A stretch of 63,869 bases of DNA, filler included, from Aduncisulcus paluster (Eukaryota), in assembly GCA_024181965.1 (NCBI GenBank). It is 4 parts of 4 records of this genome, joined end to end, with 100 filler letters (N's around TTAATTAATTAA, not from the genome) between each part and the next. Parts side by side here need not be neighbours in the genome. Positions count along the whole stretch, not along the records: positions 41,246 to 58,968 come from BQXS01009986.1; 3 more parts are not named here. One strand, 5' to 3'. A program made the translations under genes and the position numbers. The notes under the pieces were generated by a model that ran no database searches, had not been told where the DNA came from, and worked only from the letters and a program-made list of their open reading frames with translations. This document shows, piece after piece, positions 22,643-59,535 of this stretch (position 1 is the first letter of the stretch; each line of letters starts with the position of its first letter).

Positions 22643-22716
22643 GGAGGGCTGGTCTAGATGGTTATGACGTCACGCTAACATCGTGAAGGTGCCGGGTTCA
22701 ATCCCCGGGTCCTCTA
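22643..22716 (+). tRNA. tRNA-Val (anticodon AAC)
   Basis: Acceptor GGAGGGC/GTCCTCT, D arm GTC..GAC, anticodon arm TCACG-CTAACAT-CGTGA, T arm CCGGG-TTCAATC-CCCGG; followed by a TTTTT Pol III terminator. Confidence 0.93.
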
Positions 22717-44574: not shown

Positions 44575-44829
44575 TAATTAACAAAAAGATGGATAAGAAA
44601 AGGAATAATGGTCCTAAAAATCAAATTGGACCATCAATTTGCGAAGAAAATTTCTCGGACCTTTTGATTCCGAGTTATGCCAGAACCTGGCGAAATAAGT
44701 ATGTTTTTTCAGTTTTAAATTTAATATTTGTTGTTGTTATCCTTTTGGATACTTTATGTGCACACTTCACTAAGTTTCTCCAATATCTTATACCCTGATC
44801 ATATTATCTTTTGATGCTAAATAGGATTA

Positions 44830-47800
44830 ATGCAATTGCATGAAGATTCTATCCCTTTGAGTTTAGCTGATCAAGATACTCATCATCTACCCGTTTCTGA
44901 TGAAGTCTCCAAACAGCAATTAAAAGAAAGAAAAGTAGATATAGATCATATATATTCTCGATTAAAGGAAATAGAAACCAAATCAAGCAATGGGTTTTCA
45001 ACTTCAAACCAGTTCTCTCCAGCTGTTTTTTCCACCCTTCAGCAATCGCCCAAACAACTTAAACAAATGAGGAAGGGAATTCATTTTTCATCAATCCCAA
45101 TTACTTCAACCATTTTATCAAATAGTTCCGTCTCTGCGAGCATTTCACATCCCCGATCTTCTCATTTTCGTTCACAGATCGATTTTGGTGGATCTGATGA
45201 TGATCCTACTCAACTCCATCAAATTAAATCTCAAACATCCTCAATAATTCCAATGACCAAATCCTCTATTGTCACAGAAAAGCATATTCTTTCCCAGAGT
45301 GAATCCAAGAACACTTCACCTTCTGTCGAGTCAAAACCCAAATATCAGGAAAAATCGACAGACTTTAGTAGTAATTCTTCACAATATTCAGATCATAGCA
45401 GCGATCATGATCAATTCTCATCCTCTAAGTTCTCTCAGCAAGTACCACATTCTCATCTCCCGAATCCTTCCTTAGAAACTCAAGAGATTGGCGATGTTGC
45501 ACTCGATTCCCATGTTGAGAGAGCTGTTGAGAGGATTCTTCAGAAATATGGACTTATTCATGGTAAATTAGGTGATATTCAATTCTCTACTTCTTCCTCC
45601 CACGTGTCACTTGCTGAATCTGAAGCCATCAAGAGAGAAAAAGAGGAGAAAGAGAAAAAAGAAAGAGAGAGGAAGAGAAAAGAAGAGGAGGAGGAGAGAG
45701 AGAGGAAGAAAAGAGAAGAAGAAGAAAAAAAGAAAGAGGGGGAAAAAAAGAGAAAAGAAGACGAAGAGAGGAGAGAAAGGGAAAGAAAAAGGAAAGAAGA
45801 GGAGGAAAGAGAGAGGAGAAGAAGAAGAAGAGAGGAAGAGGAGGAGGAGAGAAGCCGAAAAGAACGTGANNNNNNNNNNNNNNNNNNNNAAGAGATTGGC
45901 GATGTTGCACTCGATTCCCATGTTGAGAGAGCTGTTGAGAGGATTCTTCAGAAATATGGACTTATTCATGGTAAATTAGGTGATATTCAATTCTCTACTT
46001 CTTCCTCCCACGTGTCACTTGCTGAATCTGAAGCCATCAAGAGAGAAAAAGAGGAGAAAGAGAAAAAAGAAAGAGAGAGGAAGAGAAAAGAAGAGGAGGA
46101 GGAGAGAGAGAGGAAGAAAAGAGAAGATGAAGAAAAAAAGAAAGAGGGGGAAAAAAAGAGAAAAGAAGACGAAGAGAGGAGAGAAAGGGAAAGAAAAAGG
46201 AAAGAAGAGGAGGAAAGAGAGAGGAGAAGAAGAAGAAGAGAGGAAGAGGAGGAGGAGAGAAGCCGAAAAGAACGTGATATGAGAAGAAAGCAAGAAGAAG
46301 AAGAAGAGGAAAGAAAGAGGAAGAGAAGGAAAGAGGAAGAGGAGGAGGAGAGAAGAAAGAAAGAGGAAGATGCTGAGATAAAGAAAGAGAATGATTGGAT
46401 TGTTCAGCAACTTCGTGATACAATATTAGCTCTAACCAAAGAGAATGAATTCCATAAGCAAGAAGCTTTAGTTCTGAAAGATCGCATTGAGTTAATTTCT
46501 CATCAACATACTGAGAATATACAAATGATCAAGGAATCCTTTGAAGCCGAGAAGGAAAGTCTACTTGGAGAAATTGATGGGCTGAAGATATCCCTTGATG
46601 ATTCTATTAAAGATAGGGAGAAAGAGAAGAAAGAAATGGTAGAAGCTCTGACAATGTCAGAAACAAACCTTACGGAAGTCAAGAAGAGCGATTCATATGT
46701 CAGGGGGCAGTTTCAGAAGCTCAAGGATTTGTACGAACAGTTGGTGCATCGAAGCAAGATCCAGGACGAAGAAATGGTCCAAATCAAGAAAGAAAGGGCT
46801 GAGTACGAACAGATCTTGGGCGAAAGACAGGAACAATTGCGTCGGAAGGTCAAGGAAATTGATGATTTGAGGGATAGAAATATCCAGTTGATGAAAACAC
46901 ACGGGGTTGAACAAGAAATGAAGAAGAAAATGGCTTCACAAGAACAAGATCTCTCATTATTGCGGAAAACGCACAGAAGTGTCGTTGATGATGGGATGAA
47001 AAAGGGAAAAGAATTGATATCTGTTCGCTCTCAGCTTGAAAAGGAAAAGAAAGGGCTGACAAAGCTGAAAAGGAACTGAAAAAATTACAATCAATGTTGT
47101 TGAAACGATCTAAATTAATTTCCTCCCAAATTAATGCCGAACTTGTGGCTAAGAAAGCTCATTCACAGCCATCANNNNNNNNNNNNNNNNNNNNTGCGTC
47201 GGAAGGTCAAGGAAATTGATGATTTGAGGGATAGAAATATCCAGTTGATGAAAACACACGGGGTTGAACAAGAAATGAAGAAGAAAATGGCTTCACAAGA
47301 ACAAGATCTCTCATTATTGCGGAAAACGCACAGAAGTGTCGTTGATGATGGGATGAAAAAGGGAAAAGAATTGATATCTGTTCGCTCTCAGCTTGAAAAG
47401 GAAAAGAAAAGGGCTGACAAAGCTGAAAAGGAACTGAAAAAATTACAATCAATGTTGTTGAAACGATCTAAATTAATTTCCTCCCAAATTAATGCCGAAC
47501 TTGTGGCTAAGAAAGCTCATTCACAGCCATCAAGTGTTGCTTCCTCCCCTCTCAGTCGTGTTCAACGCCCAAATATCACAATATGGGAGAAAGAGAAAGA
47601 AAAGAAGGATCCAACGATTCGTGAGGACCGTAATCAAGACAGAGAAATTCCAACAAAAGATGAACAAAAGGAAAGCAAAGATAAGTATTCCTCCTCCTCT
47701 TCTTCTTCTTCTTCCTCGACTTCATATGTATTTGGACAACATTCTTACCTTCGAGATACCATAAAATTAGACAATAATGAATTCAAACCCATCTCCCATT

Positions 47801-48672
47801 CGATAAAATCTCCGACAACCTCATCATCTCAAGCTCCTTCCTCTTCTTCCTCCTCTTCCTCTTCCTCTTCCTCCTCTTCCACTCACATTGTTGATGAGCC
47901 TACCAGTTATGCAGAGAAATTTTCAAAAAAGAAAGATATGATCTGGCGAACTAAGTCTGAGAGACTTGGAAAGATTGGGAAATCTCCCCTCCCCAAAGAT
48001 AATTCCAATCCCCAATCCTCTACTATACTGTACTGTACTACTTCACAGGCTCAACCCAAGGATATTGTGGGATCTGTTTCTCCTGTATCTCCTCTTCTTG
48101 GTCACCCAGATCGAAGAAAAATGGCAGAAGAAAGGGTCAGACGTCGTGCGAATGAAGAGAAACCCTCAACAATGTCTTTGTCCAATCCGTATGTGAGCGA
48201 CGAGGCTTCTAAGCACAAAGACCAGGCTTCCTTTGATAGTTCTCAGCCTTCTCCTTCAAACCATTTCTCTTCAACGCGTCGCACAGCCTCTCCTTCTCTC
48301 TCTCCGAAGATTTCTAGTGTTCGTTCTGAGTTGCGAACTATGCTTAACGGGTTCAATAATGCAGTTGATCATAAATTGGATCATAAATTGGATCATAAAT
48401 CACCTACAAAGAGTCAAGAGAAAGGAATATCACGAAACGGAAAAGATTCTCCGATAAAACAGGTCTCAAAACAAGAGGATCAAAAGCGTGAGAAAGAAGA
48501 ATATGCTGCTGGTGATACGAAGGGTGTAGATTCTCCTGTTGGTGAATTGCATAAATACGTGCAAGGAATGTCTCCAATGGTGTCTGAAAGGAAAGATATA
48601 AAGAAAAAAGCACCTGACATTGAGATTAAAACGCCAGTATCATCTCTTCAAAGAATTCTTGATGAAATGTAA
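44830..48672 (+). CDS. Large coiled-coil / charged single-alpha-helix protein (one gene split by two assembly duplications)
   Basis: ORFs 44830-47079 and 47134-48672 share duplicated segments around two N gaps; E/R/K-rich tract. Confidence 0.7.
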
Positions 48673-49059: not shown

Positions 49060-49298
49060 GACAAATTACAAAGAATACATCACATTTCTAAGTTTTATTC
49101 ATAGGTTTCGATTTTTCGGCAATGCGAATATATTATCAGTGATTCTATTTTTTAGTCTTGCCATATCCACATTATAAATAAATAAATTTCATATATTTTT
49201 ATTTTGTAGTATTTAATAAATTAATAAAAAATTGCTAAACATACAATCTTAACAGATAATAATGAAATGTGCTGCCAATAGAAATTGGACTTCGCAGC

Positions 49299-49536
49299 TG
49301 TGGTGTTAGTCACTAAATAAGCGAATAACACGGAGACGATTCGTCAACGTTAGATACAATTTATTGGTTTGCGGGAGATCAGATTGATTCTTGTGAAATC
49401 AATTACATGTCAAATTATGAGACATAGAATATAAAATAAATATATAAAATAAACATAATTCGAATAAATAATAATAAAAATGAATATTGTTCTAGAAATA
49501 TCGTGTTATAAAAAGTTTTGAGGTGGGGTCACCACA
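49299..49536 (-). repeat. 3' LTR
   Basis: Identical by eye to 58413-58650. Confidence 0.97.
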
Positions 49537-49553
49537 CCCCGATCTCACTTTTC
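49537..49553 (-). other. Putative polypurine tract (GAAAAGTGAGATCGGGG)
   Basis: Purine-rich run abutting the 3' LTR on the sense strand; 16 nt of it recur at 50903-50918. Confidence 0.7.
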
Positions 49554-51619
49554 GAGAGGTTATTTATAAGCTCGAAGCACCAAGACACCAATAAACGAAA
49601 ACAACACCGAGAAACTTGCAATCCCCCCATTACGATCTCTAGTACCCAATACAACTTCTAATACTACTTATAACCTGATCAAATTGCGTGTATTTGGTCT
49701 CCTTTAAACATTTCAGATGTCTACATACGGCAATCACCAATAATACCATTCCATTTTGCCGCGAAGACGCACAGAAGACAAGTAAAACCCTGTACATGGG
49801 ACAAAGACTCATCCTCCCTGGACACACCAGGTCCACCGCCAGCACGTGGGGAGAAAACGTGAACACCAATCACGTAAACCCCGTGAATTCACCATTATTG
49901 TCAGGGAAAGAAAAACAAAACCCTGTTATTCATCCAAAAACACCATGAGTGCAAAAACCTCATCACCAAGGACTAAAAACACCCAAAACTACACCAGCAT
50001 GAATGTAAAACCTCACACCAGAGGGAAACCATTCATCTCAGATCAGCTCCAGAGCTGATCACCATCCAAGGTCATCACCAAGACCTGCGTATGCCACCAA
50101 AAGGTCGAAATAAAACCTCACCATAGGATAAACTTTCATACCTTCACCAACACCAACCATCGAAGCAAAACCTTCACACCACGAAGGACTAAATCTCCAA
50201 CAGCACCGAACTTTCACCATCAGGAACCGGTAATACCACCAATTTTCACCGTCCTGGGCCGTCACCATCGGCTCACCACAGTTCAGTCTTAGTTACAACT
50301 CCCGGTTGTGAATATGATGGTACAGCTGGCGACAGCAGCCGTATCACCGTCCACAGACCATCGGTTCCAACCGTCACCATGCGTAACAACACCGATTCTG
50401 AGTATAATATACCACACCAAGTTGCGATCTCCAGGGAAAAGAGAATAAAACCCTGTCACCAAACACCAAACTCCAAAACCCTAGGCCTCAGCACCTTTCA
50501 GGACAAAAGAAGTTATCACCACCAAGCTCCAAAGTGTTTTATCAATATATTTCCAATGCATACGCCACCGAACACCAACACCATTGTCACTTTTAACACC
50601 AATAACACTTGAGCACCAACACCATGTATTTCCACCATATGTGGTACATATTACCACCCACCATGGAGATTGTTTCACCAAATCTCCAGCAACTGTGTTC
50701 ATCACCAATTATGAACACTTTAATTCTTCCAATGCAATACCGATATTGCATCATCACCAGTTCTCCACCAATAAGATCGTCTTTTACCATACGACACACA
50801 CCAGTTCGAACATTGAATCATGTGTTCCAGCACCACTCTGCTGACTATCTTTATCGATTCAATAATTTTGAAAACGCGATGATCATCTATACCATATACT
50901 ATCCCCGATCTCACTTTTGTTGAAGTTTTCCACGACAAACTTTAACACCAATCATACCACCCACCAAGAAGATCTGAGCATTAGTAACACCAATTTTGAA
51001 TCAATAAATATCACCAATACACACACGTTCACCTGATGTTGTATTCCAGCCTTTAACTCTCATCTGTGTCGACGTATCCTTGGAGTACCACCAACACCAT
51101 ATGCTTTCTATCCATAATAAACATCACCATGTCTGCTTGCGGACAATTACGGTCCACTCCAGTCGAATTCCACGACCTGATCGTCACCAAGACGCAAAAC
51201 GGAACTCAGTCGAGAGTTTCACCACGCGTATCACACATTCGTATGTATCAATAGAGTACTCACACATCGCTGCAGTCTCTGTCCACGATAAATCAGATTT
51301 CAAGTTTCACACTCCAATACACCACCAGAATCTTCACCAGTATCGAATATCCAACCCACCAATAGTTATATAACCACCAGTAAAACCAACACCAATCAAC
51401 ATGTAAGCCCATCCAACGACTTATATGCCACTATTAATTAAGCAAAATATCCGATTATCAGCATTGTCCATATGCTAATACACACCAATAAACACCATAG
51501 TAAACGATTTTAACCACCAAGACCACCAATAATGAAACAACACATATATACGTTTACTCTTAACGAGTAATGATCACCAAAGATATGTTCTTGTGTCGAA
51601 TTTAATAAACACCAAAAGA

Positions 51620-54600
51620 TTATTCCGTATAATCTTCATCACTCGTCTCTTCACTGGATTCAGAATCTTCTATCTGCCAGTCTTTCCTTTTTCTTTTACC
51701 TTTACCATTCTTGTTACGACTTTTCGTGAGGAAAATCTCTTTCAGTTTCTTATCTCGTTTGCAGTATTCCACAAACTGAGTCGACCCTTCGAGATTTGAC
51801 CACGGTTCCACTGTTGTTTCATCATAACCCAACCATTTCACAGTAAACCTGTATTTGTCCTTTTCACCAGACTTTCCACGAGGATTACGTGTATGGCTCA
51901 CCACTTCTTCCAATACATACTCTTCCTTATCAAGAGTAGCAGCCTCAATCATGTCATCCCATGTCGCGTGAGAATCATCAAAAGGCACCACCGCCTCAGA
52001 AGCCAACTTCCGAGTTTTACCATCCACTATACTCTTCAATGTCACCGTTTCAGTTTCCAAGTTGTGTTTTACCACCAACCATGGACCCAACAAACGAGAA
52101 GAAAACTTATGATCGATCTTCGTTCTCGGTTTCACCAATACGAAACATCCAGGAGTATACACCAATCGTGTTTTAGCAACACCACCTTCGTCCACCACAC
52201 GTTCAATTTGTACACCAGACAATAAACGTCTTTCAACCTTTTTGTTGAACTCATCAACACCAGGAGCCATCTTCTTATCTCTACGAAGAGTTGCTTCTTC
52301 GTTTGCTTTACGCATTACCACATGCACCCTTGAAACATGCTTCTTGAGCATTTTCACGTATTCAGCCATCAGATCTTTATCGTCGATGTCATCCACGTTG
52401 ACATCTGATTTCCCATCTTTAGACTTCCACTGAAGCAAACTCCCACGAGTTGGCTTGTACCAATGACCAAATAAAGCTTGATAAGGAGAAACACCAGTCA
52501 TCCTGTTCACCGTTGTGTTGATAACATATTGAGCCATGGGAATTGCACGTTCCCAGTCTTCTTTGAATCCAAGCATCGAAATTGCAATACGAATATGTCT
52601 AATCACCTCTTGATTAGCTCTTTCCACCATACCATTCGCCGTTGGGCGTGCAGCCAACACCTTGTGTTGTGATATGCCCAACCGTGTATACAATTCACGC
52701 ACGATGCCGTTCACATATTCACCACCACGGTCGCTTTGAATCACTCTCGGCAATCCAAATCGTCCAAAAACACCGTCGATGAGGGCCTGAGCTGTCACCT
52801 CTGCAGACTTGTTCTCCGTAGCCACTATTTCCGTCCACCGAGTAAACATGTCCACCATGACTACCAAATATCTGTTTCCAGAGTTGCTCACCGTGATAGG
52901 ACCCACTGTGTCCACAGCAACAGTATCAAATGGATGATCCACCGCCGTACTCTTCATCATCCGTCTCACCAAGAGTCTAGCCCTCAACCGCTGACACACC
53001 AAGCACTTGTCAACATGTTCTTTCGCATGTATATTAGCATTGCAGATATAAACACCATTATCTTTAATACTTTTCACCATTTTCGATATGCCCACATGTC
53101 CAGCCAAAGGGTCATCATGCACAGCATTCATGATTTCCGTCACCAATTTCTTGTCGACTTCCGGCACCAAAATCTTTCCATCGACCTCGAAAATAAAGTC
53201 ATCAGGCTTGTCAGTCCATACTGAGCTCGCCAAATGTTCTCTTTGACTCTTTCTGATCTTTTCTATCCACTTTTCCTTCGAGTCATGAGCACCAGGTTCC
53301 ACCAAAGATTCACCAGCCTTCAGGAACATCACCACTTTCGGTTCTAAGTCTTCACCAGGTTTTGGATGCACCAATGAGTCACGTACTATGATCTCAGGAT
53401 ATTCACCACGGAGTGGAGTGGCCCTAGCCTTCACATGGCTTGGTCTCCAATCCATAATCTCAGCATCCGCTTCGTCATTTGACATCACCTTACATTTCTC
53501 ACCACGTTGAAGTTTCTTTTCTCGATGTCCAATTCGAGATAGCGTATCCGCTACAATATTCTTCTTCCCAGCGATATACTCCAGTTTAAAATCAAAATCA
53601 CTTAAGTATGTCCGCCAACGTTCCACCTTTGCGCTCTTTGTGTTCTGTATCCACTTCAGATTCTTATGATCCGTATGGATCCAGAATTTCCGACCACGCA
53701 GATGAAATTCACACTTACAGATACAAAAGAACACCGCCAGAGCTTCACGTTCTGTCGTTGTTTGTGTCTGTTCTTGAGCAGATAACGTTCGACTAAGAAA
53801 CTCAATCACACCAGGATTCTCACGTTTCTTATCACCAGGGTCGAACTGCATCAACACACCACCAATTCCACATAAACTAGCATCAGTAAATAAATGTAGT
53901 TCAGCACCAGGACGAGGAAATTCCAAACATAAGCCTTTTTCCAAGTCATTCACCACCGTATCAATAGCAGTCTGCACTTCGTCTGACCACTTAAACACCG
54001 CATTTTTACCCACCATAGAAGTTAAAGGCTTCACCTTATCAGAATACTTATGAATAAACTTTTTCAAATAGTTAGCTGTACCAAGAAAACTTCTGACATC
54101 ACTGACATTCTTTAACTTCTTAAATTTCTTTAAAGCAGCCAATTTCTTGGGACTACGTCTTATTCCATCACCACTAATCATAAATCCCAGGAATTCTACT
54201 TCCTTAGCACCAATAACAGTCTTTTCCAAATTCACCTTTAGATTGAACATGTCCAACCTCAATAACACCGCGAAAAGACTCACCAAAAGACCAGGCATTG
54301 TATCAGAAAACACTATTATGTCATCCAAGTAAACACAACACACCATACCAATCAAACCAGTCAATACACGGTTCATACATTCTTGAAAGAACGGAGGAGC
54401 ATTCTTTAAACCAAAGGGGAGTCTATTAAACTCATATTGTCCAAATTGAGTCACGAAACTAGTGAATTTCTTACTGCTCTCCTCGACTTCAAGCTGCCAA
54501 TAACCGCTCGTGAGATCTAACACCGCATAATACTTTGTTCCACCAAGAAGTTGGAATAAATCATCGATAACAGGAAGTACCTGTCCCATACCTTTCGTCA

Positions 54601-57600
54601 CTTTGTTGAGAGGTCTATAATCGACACACAAACGAAGTTTTCCATTCTTCTTTGGCACGATCACCGTAGCACAATGGTATTCCGTCGTGCTTGGCCTGAT
54701 CACCTTTTTATCCACCATTTCCACCAATTGATTGTATATTTCTTTGGCCCAATCTCGCCGAATTCGCCTGTACGGTTCACTGATTACCACGTCAGGATCC
54801 GTCAGTTCGATCTTAAACTTACCCACGTTCGCTGGCACCACATCCAGCCCATCAAATAAATTAGAAACCACCATAAGCATCGCAATAATCACCGAAAAAT
54901 AACCAGATACATCATTTACTCCACCACTATCCTTAGCAATAGAGTTTTTATATTTTTCTACATCACCAGGGGTTATTTCATCCAATGTATCAATTACAGT
55001 CTTCAAGCCATCCACCAGTTCGTCACCCATGGTATTTACAATGGCGTCAATACGAGGATCACGTGTGACTTGATCAGCTGTAACTATTTCACCACTCTTA
55101 TCACCAACACCAGGTTTTAAATCGCCAGAAATAAAACTTTCACAACCTGTTCTGTCGGCTAATTGCTTTAATACCAACTCGATTTCCTTTCTTTGGTCTA
55201 CAGGACTTCGATAACCACGAACATCCGTTACACCAACACTCAGACGCATAGCTTCCATTCCATCACGTCCTACAATCATTGGAACATCTTTCTGCAACCA
55301 TGGAGAAAGCCAAAATGTAATAAAACCACGAGTCGTTGTTGTTTGATTCCTCTTTCTTCCATCACCACGACAAACAGCAATTTTCAACACCACGTAATGC
55401 GTACATATTATTTTACCACCACCAAAGACAGTAAACACCAAAGGTTTATCAGCCTTGCGTATCATGTCACCAAAAAGCTTCTTTTGTTTCCAAACAGGCA
55501 GTTCACCAGTTTTCATACCCACAGAGTATCCACAGTGATCCAACCATGAAGTACTAATCAAAGAAATGTCAGCACCAGTGTCAAAAAGACATTTCACGCT
55601 CCGAGTTCCTGTCTTGAAACAATAAACTGTCACAGTCACCACTCCAGCTTTAGGATCGTCACCAGTATCCATCGTCATGCATTTACAGTCTTTTCTAGCT
55701 GTAAGAGCCATTACATGAGCATTCACCGTGTCCAAATTGAAGTCTCGAACACTGTTAGCCTTCAAGGGAGCCACAGGTTTATAATCCACCGGTCCAGTAC
55801 AGCCAGGTTTCCAATTAGACTCCATGAGGGGTTTAGAAGCATTAAAAGGAGTTTTTCCAGCCAAGATTTCCACAGGAATCTGCTCTAACACCGTACCACC
55901 AGCTCCTTTTTCCAATCTCAACGCTTCCAATTGTTCACCAACACCAGGGACGTTACTGAGATCCTCTATCTCTTTTCTGACTTTTTTATCAATTGTNNNN
56001 NNNNNNNNNNNNNNNNAAGGGAGCCACAGGTTTATAATCCACCGGTCCAGTACAGCCAGGTTTCCAATTAGACTCCATGAGGGGTTTAGAAGCATTAAAA
56101 GGAGTTTTTCCAGCCAAGATTTCCACAGGAATCTGCTCTAACACCGTACCACCAGCTCCTTTTTCCAATCTCAACGCTTCCAATTGTTCACCAACACCAG
56201 GGACGTTACTGAGATCCTCTATCTCTTTTCTGACTTTTTTATCAATTGTTAAGTCATCTACGTCATCCACCCAAGGTCCACCACCTTCTCTTGGATCTTG
56301 GTATTGCGTCACGTCACGTTCCAACGGACACAATCTTTTTGGGATTGTTACACCATCAATAGCTTCCGAATAAAGCACCCTATGACGCCTTTTATCACCA
56401 CCAGCGTCATTTCTTTTTTTATCAACAGCGGTTGTGTCACCAACAACGGCTTTATCTTTCACCATCACCATTACACCGCGTTCACGTTCAGGTTCATCAG
56501 CAGTTTTCTCAGCATTCACCTTTTCATGTAAATACATATTAAAAGCACGTCTATATGCTTCTATCCACCAGTCTTTAGTACCTCTGAGAATCAGCTCACC
56601 ATCAAAGTATTTCAACACCAATTCACCACGATCGCACGCTTCTATGATCATTTCCTTATATCTAGCGATACGTTTACTCCTCTTCTCCACTTCTGCCTTA
56701 ATCTTCCGCTGTTCTTCGATGGGGAGGGGAGTTCCGGTACACACACGTGAGAAGTGACCAAATTCACCGCATTTGAAACACTGAACATGACTATACGGTT
56801 GCCAGTTGGAGGAAGCATAGTCACCAGAGCCTCTTCCACCGTCACGAACACCACCATGATCACGTCTACCGCGATCTCGATATCCACCACCGCGATATCC
56901 TCTATAACCACCACCACCAGATTGTCTTCGACCACCATCGTGTCTCGAACTACGTTCTTGATGTGCTTTAACGGCACTGTCGACAAAGGACTTCTTTTTC
57001 GACCATTCCTCTTCAGGTTTGCACATCTCCCTGAATTTAATAAACGTAGCCACCAATCCAGAATAATCAGAGCTTATCAAAGCCTGTTTATACACCGTCC
57101 AACGCTCATCATCAATAATGCGTCGTTTTCCATCACCGTCACCACAGGATTTGCATTTCCATGCAAAGTGATCGCTTGACCCACAATAAGGACACATTGG
57201 TCTTAAAGAATCACTTGAAGAGCACATTGAACTGCTTGAACTTCCACGTTTGTGTTCAAAAGCACCAAAAGTTCGTTCCATAGTAAAACCTCGATCCAGT
57301 TCACTTACAGCATCACTAGACCTCCGTTTTAAATCACCAATAGATGCTCTTCCTACTTGAGCTTCACCAAGAGCTCGATTCTTGTCTGCTTCGCTCACCA
57401 AACGAAGAGTGTAACGAATGATACCATTCATATCGTCCACTTCATACACCAAACCACCACTGCTTCCGCTGCTTACTTGACCACCAAATAAACGGAAATC
57501 TCTTACGTCTGTTTTGATTTTGCTTCCCAATTCCGTCGGACGAAGGCCTTCCACGAAAATATCCACTGCACGTTTCATTTGGATCATTGTCCATGATTCC

Positions 57601-58307
57601 GAGCCACTGCGTTTCATCAAAGCCTTCCACGCCACCACATAGTCGCTAACAGAGTTAACATCAGCTTCCTCGCGACCCTCCACCACGGAACACTCACACA
57701 CCAAGCTTGCTGAGTTTCTGACAAAGACTTCGAATAAATTAGTCGACATATAATACTTTAGAATTGCATTTAATGTCTCCAGAACGTATTCATGATCACC
57801 ACAAGACACGTCGAACTCAATACCAGATAGCGAGCTTATCACCGACAAAACACCATCATCCATGAGCGTACCCATGGAAGGAAGCACCACCACACTATCA
57901 GACTTCACCATATCCAATACCTTGTGACAAAAGTCAATAACTTCATCACAGTGAGCACGAGCCAACTGATATATGAAATTACCACGAGGAGGTTGTCCAA
58001 CCTTTTCTTTTATCACCGGAAGCACCTTTTTTCTGACACCAGACTCAGTAAATAGTGCTGTAGAGCCCAAATCACCACGGCTCAGCGTGTTGTTGCGAAC
58101 ACCATCGGAAAAAGTTGATCCCGTCACCTCACTGCCCAATTCGTGACTTTTTGTTTCGCTATGTTCTTGTTCCACCAACAAGTCATCACTAGGAACGTCA
58201 GCAATTACACCAGATTTCTTTGTTCCGAGTTTTAATTTTCCCTTAGTAGTTTCACTAATAGAAACGTCCGTAAGTTTCGTTGTTTTTGGTTTGGAACTTT
58301 TTCCCAT
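51620..58307 (-). CDS. Single Gag-Pol polyprotein (~2144 aa): 2 CCHC knuckles, aspartic protease, RT, RNase H, integrase, chromodomain
   Basis: CPYCGSSDHFAWKC, CFKCGEFGHFSRVC, LFDTGA, RLCVDYR, LPFGLKNAP, YLDD, TDAS, HDDPLAGH..CLVCQ, SDRG, GMVER, KWLGYDETTVEPWSNL. Removing the 253-nt gap duplication gives 6435 nt in one frame. Confidence 0.93.
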
Positions 58308-58412
58308 AATAAAACAACAATATCTCCTAATAGATTTGCACACCGAGCAAAAAGAAGAAACACCGAATTACTAAACAGTAATTAAAAAAAATTCTCTAAA
58401 ATTTGATCAAAT

Positions 58413-58650
58413 TGTGGTGTTAGTCACTAAATAAGCGAATAACACGGAGACGATTCGTCAACGTTAGATACAATTTATTGGTTTGCGGGAGATCAGATTG
58501 ATTCTTGTGAAATCAATTACATGTCAAATTATGAGACATAGAATATAAAATAAATATATAAAATAAACATAATTCGAATAAATAATAATAAAAATGAATA
58601 TTGTTCTAGAAATATCGTGTTATAAAAAGTTTTGAGGTGGGGTCACCACA
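58413..58650 (-). repeat. 5' LTR
   Basis: Identical by eye to 49299-49536. Confidence 0.97.
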
Positions 58651-58968
58651 CAGCTTCAAAATATCTTTGTTTTGCTTCACATTAACAATAAAGAACATTA
58701 GTTATTACTATTAATTTATTTTTATTTGATTATTGGATTATATTATCCTGTATTTCATTATTTAATTTTGAATTAAAAATATACATAGATCGTTGCATCA
58801 ACACTGAAATACTTTGTCCTTCTCGCATTGGCACATTATTACGATGAACGATTGAGAAAAATCTTTCAATTGCTGCTCCGGTCATGGGAATACTAAGGAT
58901 ATATTTCCTCGCAGAATCAAGCTGATAATATTCTTTTTCGATATTAACTGATTCATCTTTGTTTAGTC

Positions 58969-59068
58969 NNNNNNNNNNNNNNNNNNNNNNNNNNNNNNNN
59001 NNNNNNNNNNNNTTAATTAATTAANNNNNNNNNNNNNNNNNNNNNNNNNNNNNNNNNNNNNNNNNNNN
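58969..59068. other. Artificial contig junction
   Basis: N-TTAATTAATTAA-N linker. Confidence 0.95.
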
Positions 59069-59070
59069 AC

Positions 59071-59535
59071 ACCAAGTTCTCCAAGACCGCCAAGTACTTC
59101 GCTGGTGAGCGTCCATGGAACGCTGCCAAGGCTGACCTTGCCTTCCCCTCTGCCACCCAGAACGAGATCAACAAGGAGAATGCCGAGCAACTCGTTGCCA
59201 ACGGTGTCTTCCTTGTTTCTGAGGGTGCCAACATGCCTTCCACCAACGAGGCCATCGAGATCTACCACGCCAACAAGTTCTTGTACGGTCCCGCCAAGGC
59301 TGCCAACGCTGGTGGTGTTGCCGTTTCTGGTCTCGAGATGAGTCAGAACTCCATGCGTCTCTCCTGGACTCGTGAAGAGGTTGATGCCAAGCTCCTCGGA
59401 ATCATGCAGAACATCTTCAAGAACTGTGCTGAGACCGCTGAGGAATTCGGTGCCAAGGGTAACTTCCAACTCGGAGCCAACATTGCTGGTTTCAAGAAGG
59501 TTGCTGACTCCATGCTCGACCAAGGTTGCTGTTAA
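59071..59535 (+). CDS. gdhA: NADP-specific glutamate dehydrogenase, C-terminal part (5'-truncated)
   Basis: AFPSATQNEI, VSEGANMPST, PAKAANAGGVAVSGLEMSQN and GANIAGFKKVADSML. Confidence 0.95.
   Translation, partial: TKFSKTAKYFAGERPWNAAKADLAFPSATQNEINKENAEQLVANGVFLVSEGANMPSTNEAIEIYHANKFLYGPAKAANAGGVAVSGLEMSQNSMRLSWTREEVDAKLLGIMQNIFKNCAETAEEFGAKGNFQLGANIAGFKKVADSMLDQGCC

Follow-up and report, generated by a model that had tools for sequence, protein, structure and literature searches.

An oriented UGGUG word in the genes and the non-coding 3' tail of a Ty3/gypsy retrotransposon from Aduncisulcus paluster: a candidate self-label of the genomic RNA

The fornicate protist Aduncisulcus paluster, which is free-living, has a G+C content of 39.1%, and the report describing it contains no mention of transposons (PMC9933649). 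The stretch of its genome analysed here (the window; 63,869 nucleotides (nt) with filler, four parts of assembly GCA_024181965.1 joined end to end) has a G+C content of 38% and long, intron-poor open reading frames (ORFs). Its minus strand carries a full-length, young and intact Ty3/gypsy long terminal repeat (LTR) retrotransposon of 9.35 kb (49299–58651; 9353 nt). The LTR repeats (49299–49537 and 58413–58651; 239 nt) are 100% identical and the 4-bp target duplication CAGC is found at both flanks of the element. The order of Pfam domains in pol fits the Ty3/gypsy group, namely RVT_1 (residues 432–592), RT_RNaseH (682–786), Integrase_H2C2 (932–991) and rve (1006–1095); a Chromo match, of the kind that the chromovirus clade has at the C-terminus of its integrase, is sub-threshold (E = 0.0013; 19.1 bits against a cut-off of 25.1 bits), and PF00385 is present in several distant homologues. 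Between pol and the 3' LTR lies an untranslated region, here called the tail. The subject of this study is a pentamer, TGGTG on the sense (minus) strand of the element and CACCA on the plus strand, which fills both genes and the tail. One copy of the element was analysed, and all RNA structures are predicted.

There are 172 copies of TGGTG in the element, as compared with approximately one per kb in the other 54 kb of the window, and 172 of the 227 CACCA copies in the window lie inside it. Within the element, the sense strand has no copy of the complementary word. The density per kb is 4 in the LTR, 0 in the leader, 19.9 in gag, 14.4 in pol and 29.3 in the tail, where 61 copies make up 35% of the total on 22% of the length; 44 copies lie upstream of the start of the pol ORF, and the gag stretch used in the tests below (56259–58367) holds 41. 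The word is sharply defined, as evidenced by its one-letter variants, which are 5–20 times rarer and occur at ordinary levels, and by the nine other G3T2 permutations, with 6–17 copies each clear of the motif against 167 for TGGTG (10–25 times rarer). A reading of TGGTG as a U1-type 5' splice site was ruled out, with G at the second downstream base in only 23 of 171 copies and a strict T at position 1.

Table 1. Positions of the element's features within the window
Feature	Coordinates	Strand	Remarks
3' LTR	49299–49536	minus	238 bp; ends TGTGGTG...CACCACA; from exact repeat and inspection of flanks
Polypurine tract	49537–49553	minus	Sense GAAAAGTGAGATCGGGG; adjoins 3' LTR; read in sequence
Untranslated 3' region (tail)	49538–51619	minus	2082 nt; without ORF or tandem array
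Repeated small modules	49940–50200	minus	Sense ...CCT-TGGTG..-AGGTTTT...; put UGGUG in short hairpin loops
Three clustered hairpins of 8 bp (50664–88, 50695–718, 50732–51)	50630–50760	minus	Only clearly low folding energy
Second polypurine tract core	50903–50918	minus	Exact 16-nt copy, in tail; from repeat search
Scripted perfect hairpins	49819–35, 50041–60, 50069–86, 50171–87, 50664–88, 50695–718, 50732–51		Stem of at least 5 bp
Short or composite hairpins	49958–71, 49999–50036, ~50107–37, 51182–94		Stems of 3–4 bp or composite; readable in sequence
pol ORF	51620–56137	minus	Protease region, reverse transcriptase, RNase H, integrase, weak chromodomain
gag ORF	55989–58367	minus	RGG-rich tract flanked by two CX2CX4HX4C knuckles
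5' LTR	58413–58650	minus	Exact repeat of 3' LTR

Within the coding regions, the word is written by synonymous choice. pol contains 65 copies versus 27.6±3.7 in codon shuffles (maximum 39 in 500 shuffles), and the tested gag stretch has its 41 copies versus 18.1±3.2. The synonymous opportunities for TGGTG are used in 105 of 123 cases (~85%) versus 29 of 169 in 12 neighbouring host ORFs, and the use is high in either frame (37/41 and 28/35 in pol; 27/33 and 13/14 in gag). All coding copies are arranged as nnT-GGT-Gnn or nTG-GTG, the two frames allowed by the code, except for a single gag copy in the third. The host ORFs have TGGTG counts in line with those of their own codon shuffles; their favoured codons are GGA and GTT, in places where the element has GGT and GTG. 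This preference depends on context: the glycine codon is GGT in 64 of 67 T_G contexts, versus 23 of 57 after a T without a following G. When the hexamers of pol were compared without bias with those of codon shuffles, the top words were only those containing TGGTG, together with TTTATT.

The protein sequence itself offers an unusual number of places for the word. pol provides 50.7 TGGTG opportunities per 1000 amino acids, the highest value among the 120 pol proteins compared, most of which lie between 10 and 30. The nearest relative of pol among 5.8 billion proteins is a single A. paluster protein (P0003, GKT35895.1; 79% identity, and 69% over 1427 residues in a second comparison), other relatives being at most about 43% identical. 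P0003 has the fourth highest value of the 120 (43.4), an indirect hint that the element encoding it may share the trait. No further copy or fragment of the element was detected within the window by blastn or tblastx. As for the DNA of relatives, a scan of viral contigs gave no match and a metagenome scan gave one 28%-identical fragment (L001), which was uninformative.

The initial annotation of this region had described the sequence between the pol stop (51620) and the 3' LTR as non-coding, and this description was borne out by stops in all frames and by the lack of Pfam families. On the sense strand, each frame of the tail has 31–41 stops with a longest open stretch of 73–77 codons, no open frame was found under the standard code or with TGA or TAR (TAA/TAG) read as sense, and TGGTG shows no phase bias. 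None of the four longest antisense ORFs passed as a Pfam family (best match DUF7025, E = 0.044). The stops in every frame and code, and the missing phase bias of the motif, ruled out a decayed or alternative-code ORF, and an extension of pol into the tail was rejected because P0003 ends at the same place. The tail shows the condition of an active element rather than decay after insertion, since the two LTRs do not differ and both genes are open. An origin by tandem repetition was also ruled out: TRF reported only three units of 7 nt and two of 10 nt (two tiny arrays of 21 nt), and a repeat-family search found only short, weak families. A search of 49200–58700 on both strands with the Rfam 15 covariance models gave no match at E≤1.

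These data bear on the possibility that the word has no function, being a by-product of a G+T-rich composition, of foreign codon usage, of a context-specific mutation bias or of a decayed ORF. The sense strand does have a strong G-over-C skew throughout, and the evidence comes from one copy. We nevertheless regard this account as very improbable in view of the rarity of permutations of the same composition, the ordinary levels of the one-letter neighbours, the context dependence of the glycine codons, the tail's lack of any open frame under the codes tried and of phase bias, and an accessibility of the word above that of synonymous shuffles (see below); the identical LTRs and open genes, in turn, argue against decay following insertion.

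The predicted accessibility of the word was expressed as the probability that the 5-mer is unpaired, with motif-preserving shuffles as controls for the tail and synonymous shuffles in which the motif codons were frozen as controls for pol. On sense RNA, the values were 0.146 in the tail (controls 0.077±0.012; reached by 0 of 100) and 0.107 in pol (controls 0.056±0.007; 0 of 43), approximately twice the controls in both regions. The effect was weaker on the antisense strand, with 0.661 in the tail (controls 0.536±0.034; 0 of 70) and 0.520 in pol (controls 0.445±0.028; 0 of 33). According to these folding models, the surroundings of UGGUG keep it unpaired, in genes and tail alike, with an effect on the sense RNA roughly double that on the antisense strand. 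In the minimum free energy (MFE) structure of the sense tail, 7 of the 61 copies lie wholly in hairpin loops versus 1.46±1.14 in shuffles, and 13 place 3 nt or more in one versus 6.1±2.3 (0 of 70 shuffles reach either value), while the mean paired fraction of the copies is 0.55 versus 0.67. The motif is thus real and strand-specific, and it is predicted to be unpaired more often than in motif-preserving shuffles. Taken over all its bases, the tail is no more open than shuffles (unpaired fraction 0.416 versus 0.416), and its MFE as a whole is marginally low (reached by 1 of 70). Words able to pair with the motif by wobble (YAYYA) are not depleted (16 versus 12.1±3.3), which ruled out a shortage of partner words as the cause; the accessibility effect is therefore one of arrangement.

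Strand preference is also relevant to an action at the DNA level, in which CACCA on minus-strand cDNA or on the duplex would have a part in priming of the plus strand, in cutting by RNase H or in contacts with integrase. The word is present at the LTR termini, the tail has a second exact copy of the polypurine tract that hints at an unusual mode of plus-strand priming, and antisense accessibility is raised as well. Against this stand the roughly twofold stronger effect on the sense strand and the internal copies, which do not carry the flanks of the LTR ends (the base at −1 is G in 41 and T in 65 of 171); moreover, internal sites resembling LTR attachment ends would be expected to invite suicidal autointegration. 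We consider a DNA-level role quite unlikely.

The initial annotation had put its emphasis elsewhere, on an array of hairpins in the tail with different stems and a constant ACCA/UGGU loop, interpreted as selection on structure rather than tandem duplication. A script retrieved seven of the 11 hairpins that it listed, as perfect stems of 5 bp or longer; the other four have stems of 3–4 bp or composite stems (Table 1). Compared with 300 dinucleotide shuffles in which every CACCA was retained as a block, the tail has an excess of hairpins with a stem of at least 5 bp and a loop of 3–10 nt (24 versus 12.2±3.6; 1 of 300 reach), and more so of those with a stem of at least 6 bp (9 versus 2.7±1.6; 0 of 300). 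Loops that contain or adjoin ACCA were commoner than in these CACCA-preserving controls, as had been proposed (7 versus 2.4±1.6; 3 of 300). Relative to all hairpins, those with such a loop are barely more frequent (7/24 versus ~20%); the excess resides mainly in the number of hairpins, and hairpin density per kb in the tail is not above that of the rest of the window. The stems are different only in part, four of the listed hairpins sharing one CCT(C)/(G)AGG module beside AAAACC. The picture of a constant loop on varied stems largely follows from strand asymmetry: the plus strand lacks TGGTG, CACCA is thereby excluded from perfect stems, and hairpins near it will look as if they had varied stems and a constant loop.

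As regards local folding energy, the cluster at 50630–50760 has an MFE of −39 kcal/mol versus −27.9±3.1 in shuffles (z −3.57; 0 of 200), and the energy of the repeated modules at 49940–50200 is not unusual (z −1.16; 27 of 200 shuffles fold as well). A structure-selected array limited to the 3' region, whether it served as a sponge of the Csr kind or as a structured antisense RNA, would account for the excess of perfect hairpins, for the locally stable cluster and for the raised loop display of the word. It does not account for a word that is element-wide, nor for a tail whose foldedness equals that of shuffles, whose whole-region MFE is only marginally low, whose modules are not unusually stable and which has no Rfam match; the antisense strand, in addition, carries 22 copies of AATAAA. 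We judge such an array very unlikely. The data do not support a hairpin array in the 3' region as the functional unit, given that the word is equally present in gag and pol and uses 85% of its opportunities there, and most tail copies (48–54 of 61) lie outside predicted hairpin loops. The hairpins are real, but they are a minor feature and a side effect of the element-wide word.

The 22 antisense AATAAA copies correspond to a second planted word, sense TTTATT. It occurs 10 times in pol versus 2.5±1.4 in codon shuffles (0 of 500), five times in gag versus 1.5 (2 of 500) and seven times in the tail versus 1.5 (1 of 300), a total of 22 in the element at intervals of a few hundred nt. Sense AATAAA, by comparison, has no internal copy and occurs once per LTR (element position 173). 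The antisense copies look like poly(A) signals set against antisense transcription, and if they block it they would bear on how elements evade RNA silencing. An antisense structured RNA, one of the functions suggested by the initial annotation, is made unlikely by these 22 signals and by the stronger accessibility effect on the sense strand.

A strict pentamer, near-saturation of its synonymous sites, shaping of the amino acid sequence and single-strandedness on the sense RNA together point to a sequence-specific RNA reader. The analysis shows the enrichment of the word, its strand specificity, its near-saturation of synonymous sites, its raised predicted accessibility and the non-coding character of the tail; from these we infer that UGGUG acts as RNA and that Gag is its ligand. 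The interpretation we tentatively favor, on the evidence of one copy and of predicted folding, is that UGGUG is a selected single-stranded word on the sense genomic RNA, that the tail is its untranslated reservoir and that the reader is most likely the element's own Gag. Such a mechanism might proceed as follows: (i) the element would write UGGUG wherever the protein code permits, preferentially in unpaired positions, (ii) the 2.1-kb tail after pol, free of coding constraint, would add 61 further copies, some of them in small hairpin loops, (iii) Gag, with its two CCHC knuckles flanking the RGG tract, would read the word, being the most economical candidate, (iv) during Gag assembly, the avidity of many sites of medium affinity per RNA would favor the element's transcript over cellular mRNAs, and (v) a distributed packaging or assembly signal, made up of the copies of the word, would take the place of a compact one in the leader. 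The leader of the element is 65 nt long and devoid of the word, and thus too short and bare for a classical packaging signal; no internal TGGTG is found in the first 440 nt of the element.

CCHC knuckles favor GGUG and GGAG, as is known for HIV-1 and Lin28, and the presence of knuckles in Gag, anticipated by the initial annotation, was confirmed by the two CX2CX4HX4C motifs. The annotation's reading of the tail as a multivalent protein-binding RNA is likewise a fair one, once the unit is taken to be the element-wide word and not the 3' hairpin array. Its observations were thus partly confirmed, and its interpretation was partly supported while aimed at the wrong unit. From published data, both cytosolic HIV-1 Gag and the mature nucleocapsid (NC) are described as favoring GU-rich RNA, and a genome-wide composition possibly drives selective packaging (PMC5930818). 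Many dispersed stem-loops with a common loop motif are described as assembly signals in single-stranded RNA viruses and in hepatitis B virus (HBV) (PMC6281560; PMC5431903; PMC7612645).

Several points weigh against a Gag-read word. The evidence is drawn from a single copy of the element, and the knuckle preference is general background for other proteins. The knuckles are ~120 residues apart with the RGG tract between them, a spacing unlike that of retroviral NC. The copies of TGGTG are spaced at random, with no periodic or lattice-like arrangement. More than half of the motif nucleotides in the tail are predicted to be paired (0.55), only 7–13 of the 61 copies are displayed in hairpin loops, and the accessibility of UGGUG in pol is in absolute terms not above that of the average 5-mer (0.107 versus 0.119), so that the claim is one relative to shuffles. 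Overall, we regard the case as a well-supported lead and not as an established mechanism.

A host RNA-binding protein could read UGGUG instead, with the tail as a multivalent docking platform that would promote nuclear export of a long intron-less RNA, protection from decay or silencing, or localization. Whatever speaks for a selected single-stranded RNA word speaks for such a reader just as much, and the zero internal AATAAA on the sense strand against 22 on the antisense strand would represent further host-directed engineering. On the other hand, no host protein was identified as a candidate, and the host ORFs of the window do not use the word, so that a cellular regulon is not visible. We hold a host reader to be rather unlikely.

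The word is also the exact complement of CACCA-3', and UGGUG might therefore pair with the 3' ends of mature tRNAs (C72-A73-CCA), forming ~170 miniature primer-binding-site seeds that gather tRNAs. In T-box RNAs and RNase P, the CCA ends of tRNAs are recognized by UGGN and GGU motifs. In the element, no tRNA-complementary (TGG...) primer-binding site was found after the 5' LTR, where the sequence is the palindrome ATTTGATCAAATT, and we take the LTR start, TGGTGACCCC, to resemble the beginning of the avian retroviral tRNA-Trp primer site. A pairing of 5 bp is weak, however, and internal priming would yield dead-end cDNA. The only tRNA gene in the window, tRNA-Val(AAC) at 22643–22716, would give a mature 3' end of UACCA and not CACCA. 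This idea is, in our opinion, highly improbable.

Returning to a Gag-read word, the closest parallel is offered by the dispersed packaging signals of phage MS2, of parechoviruses (GxU) and of HBV (RGAG loops), which in published accounts are genome-wide sites, coding regions included, with varied stems and one short motif read by the capsid protein. The element resembles these in having many copies of one motif (172) spread over its genome, and differs in being an LTR retrotransposon with a strict pentamer used ~170 times, near-saturation of synonymous sites and most copies outside predicted loops. With the retroviral psi, whose exposed G-rich loops are bound by the zinc knuckles of NC, and with the GU-preferring HIV-1 Gag and NC it shares a CCHC-knuckle Gag and a G/U word of raised predicted accessibility; it lacks a compact leader element, psi being a discrete structure in the 5' leader or at the start of gag, its signal being spread over 9 kb and concentrated in the 3' tail, and its two widely separated knuckles are unlike those of retroviral NC.

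The GGA loops of CsrB and RsmZ, the DSR repeats of fission-yeast meiRNA and NORAD are cases in which many motif copies on separate transcripts titrate a regulator. Like these sponge RNAs, the tail has many copies of a short motif on a non-coding stretch, some of them in loops, but it belongs to a genomic RNA that also encodes proteins, of which it makes up the 3' part, and the genes carry the word too. Oriented words that act on the duplex DNA of whole chromosomes are known from bacteria in the form of Chi, uptake sequences and KOPS. They share with TGGTG a strand-specific short word enriched in coding sequence through synonymous choice, whereas the present word is the mark of a single mobile element, and its target appears to be single-stranded RNA. 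Plant Ty3/gypsy elements (Ogre and its kin) are described as having long, variable 3' untranslated regions with tandem repeats (PMC7004042); the likeness lies in the length of non-coding sequence that separates pol from the 3' LTR, and the difference in the absence of a tandem array from the tail studied here.

No description of a pentamer-saturated LTR retrotransposon was found in the open-access papers searched. Within the literature searched, an element-wide word tuned for accessibility and concentrated in a tail, as a distributed recognition or packaging signal, has not been described for LTR retrotransposons. It is possible, if still short of probable, that the element has been recoded around UGGUG, with its amino acids bent toward Gly/Val dipeptides and a tail added, so that the transcript is a self-label for Gag or a host factor which replaces a packaging signal. 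In combination with the putative antisense poly(A) signals, this would constitute a retroelement sequence engineered genome-wide for recognition at the RNA level. How LTR retrotransposons select their own RNA is poorly understood beyond the yeast Ty elements and the retroviruses, and if the reading is true the element would provide a clean natural system for avidity over many weak sites as opposed to one structured signal. It would also mean that strong selection can act on the synonymous sites, and even on the amino acid usage, of a mobile element, which is relevant to models of retroelement evolution and to the annotation of "non-coding tails".

Several minor features of the element were also recorded. 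At the position expected for a primer-binding site there is a 14-nt palindrome, AATTTGATCAAATT (58399–58413, minus strand), the first A of which is the last base of the LTR, and a near-copy of 10–11 nt, CAATTTGATCA, is located at ~49672–49690, near the 3' end of the tail. The two could constitute a site of dimerization or of 5'–3' cyclization. Self-priming of the Tf1 type would call for a complement of the post-LTR sequence in the LTR, and none was found there. The second polypurine core lies 1366 nt upstream of the tract at 49537–49553 and may be a second plus-strand priming site. The N-terminus of Gag (58307–58290, minus strand) reads MGKSSKPKTTK, which we take to be similar to the N-myristoylation signal and basic patch of retroviral matrix and Src. 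At the joint between gag and pol (55764–56249), a gap of 20 N is flanked by an exact duplication of 233 nt, with the same 77 residues appearing in both ORFs; the duplication and gap are probably an assembly artefact, so that gag and pol may be a single frame.

Beyond the element, 59017–59535 encodes part of a glutamate dehydrogenase domain, namely its C-terminal two-thirds (Pfam ELFV_dehydrog, E = 5.8e-54). Disruption of this gene by insertion of the element was ruled out, because the fragment begins directly at a scaffold gap. On the other side, two host ORFs (44821–47079 and 47119–48672) have no Pfam family; they include long purine-rich low-complexity tracts coding for Glu, Lys and Arg, runs of N, and exact duplications of 300 nt and 218 nt (45482–46290 and 46838–47532).

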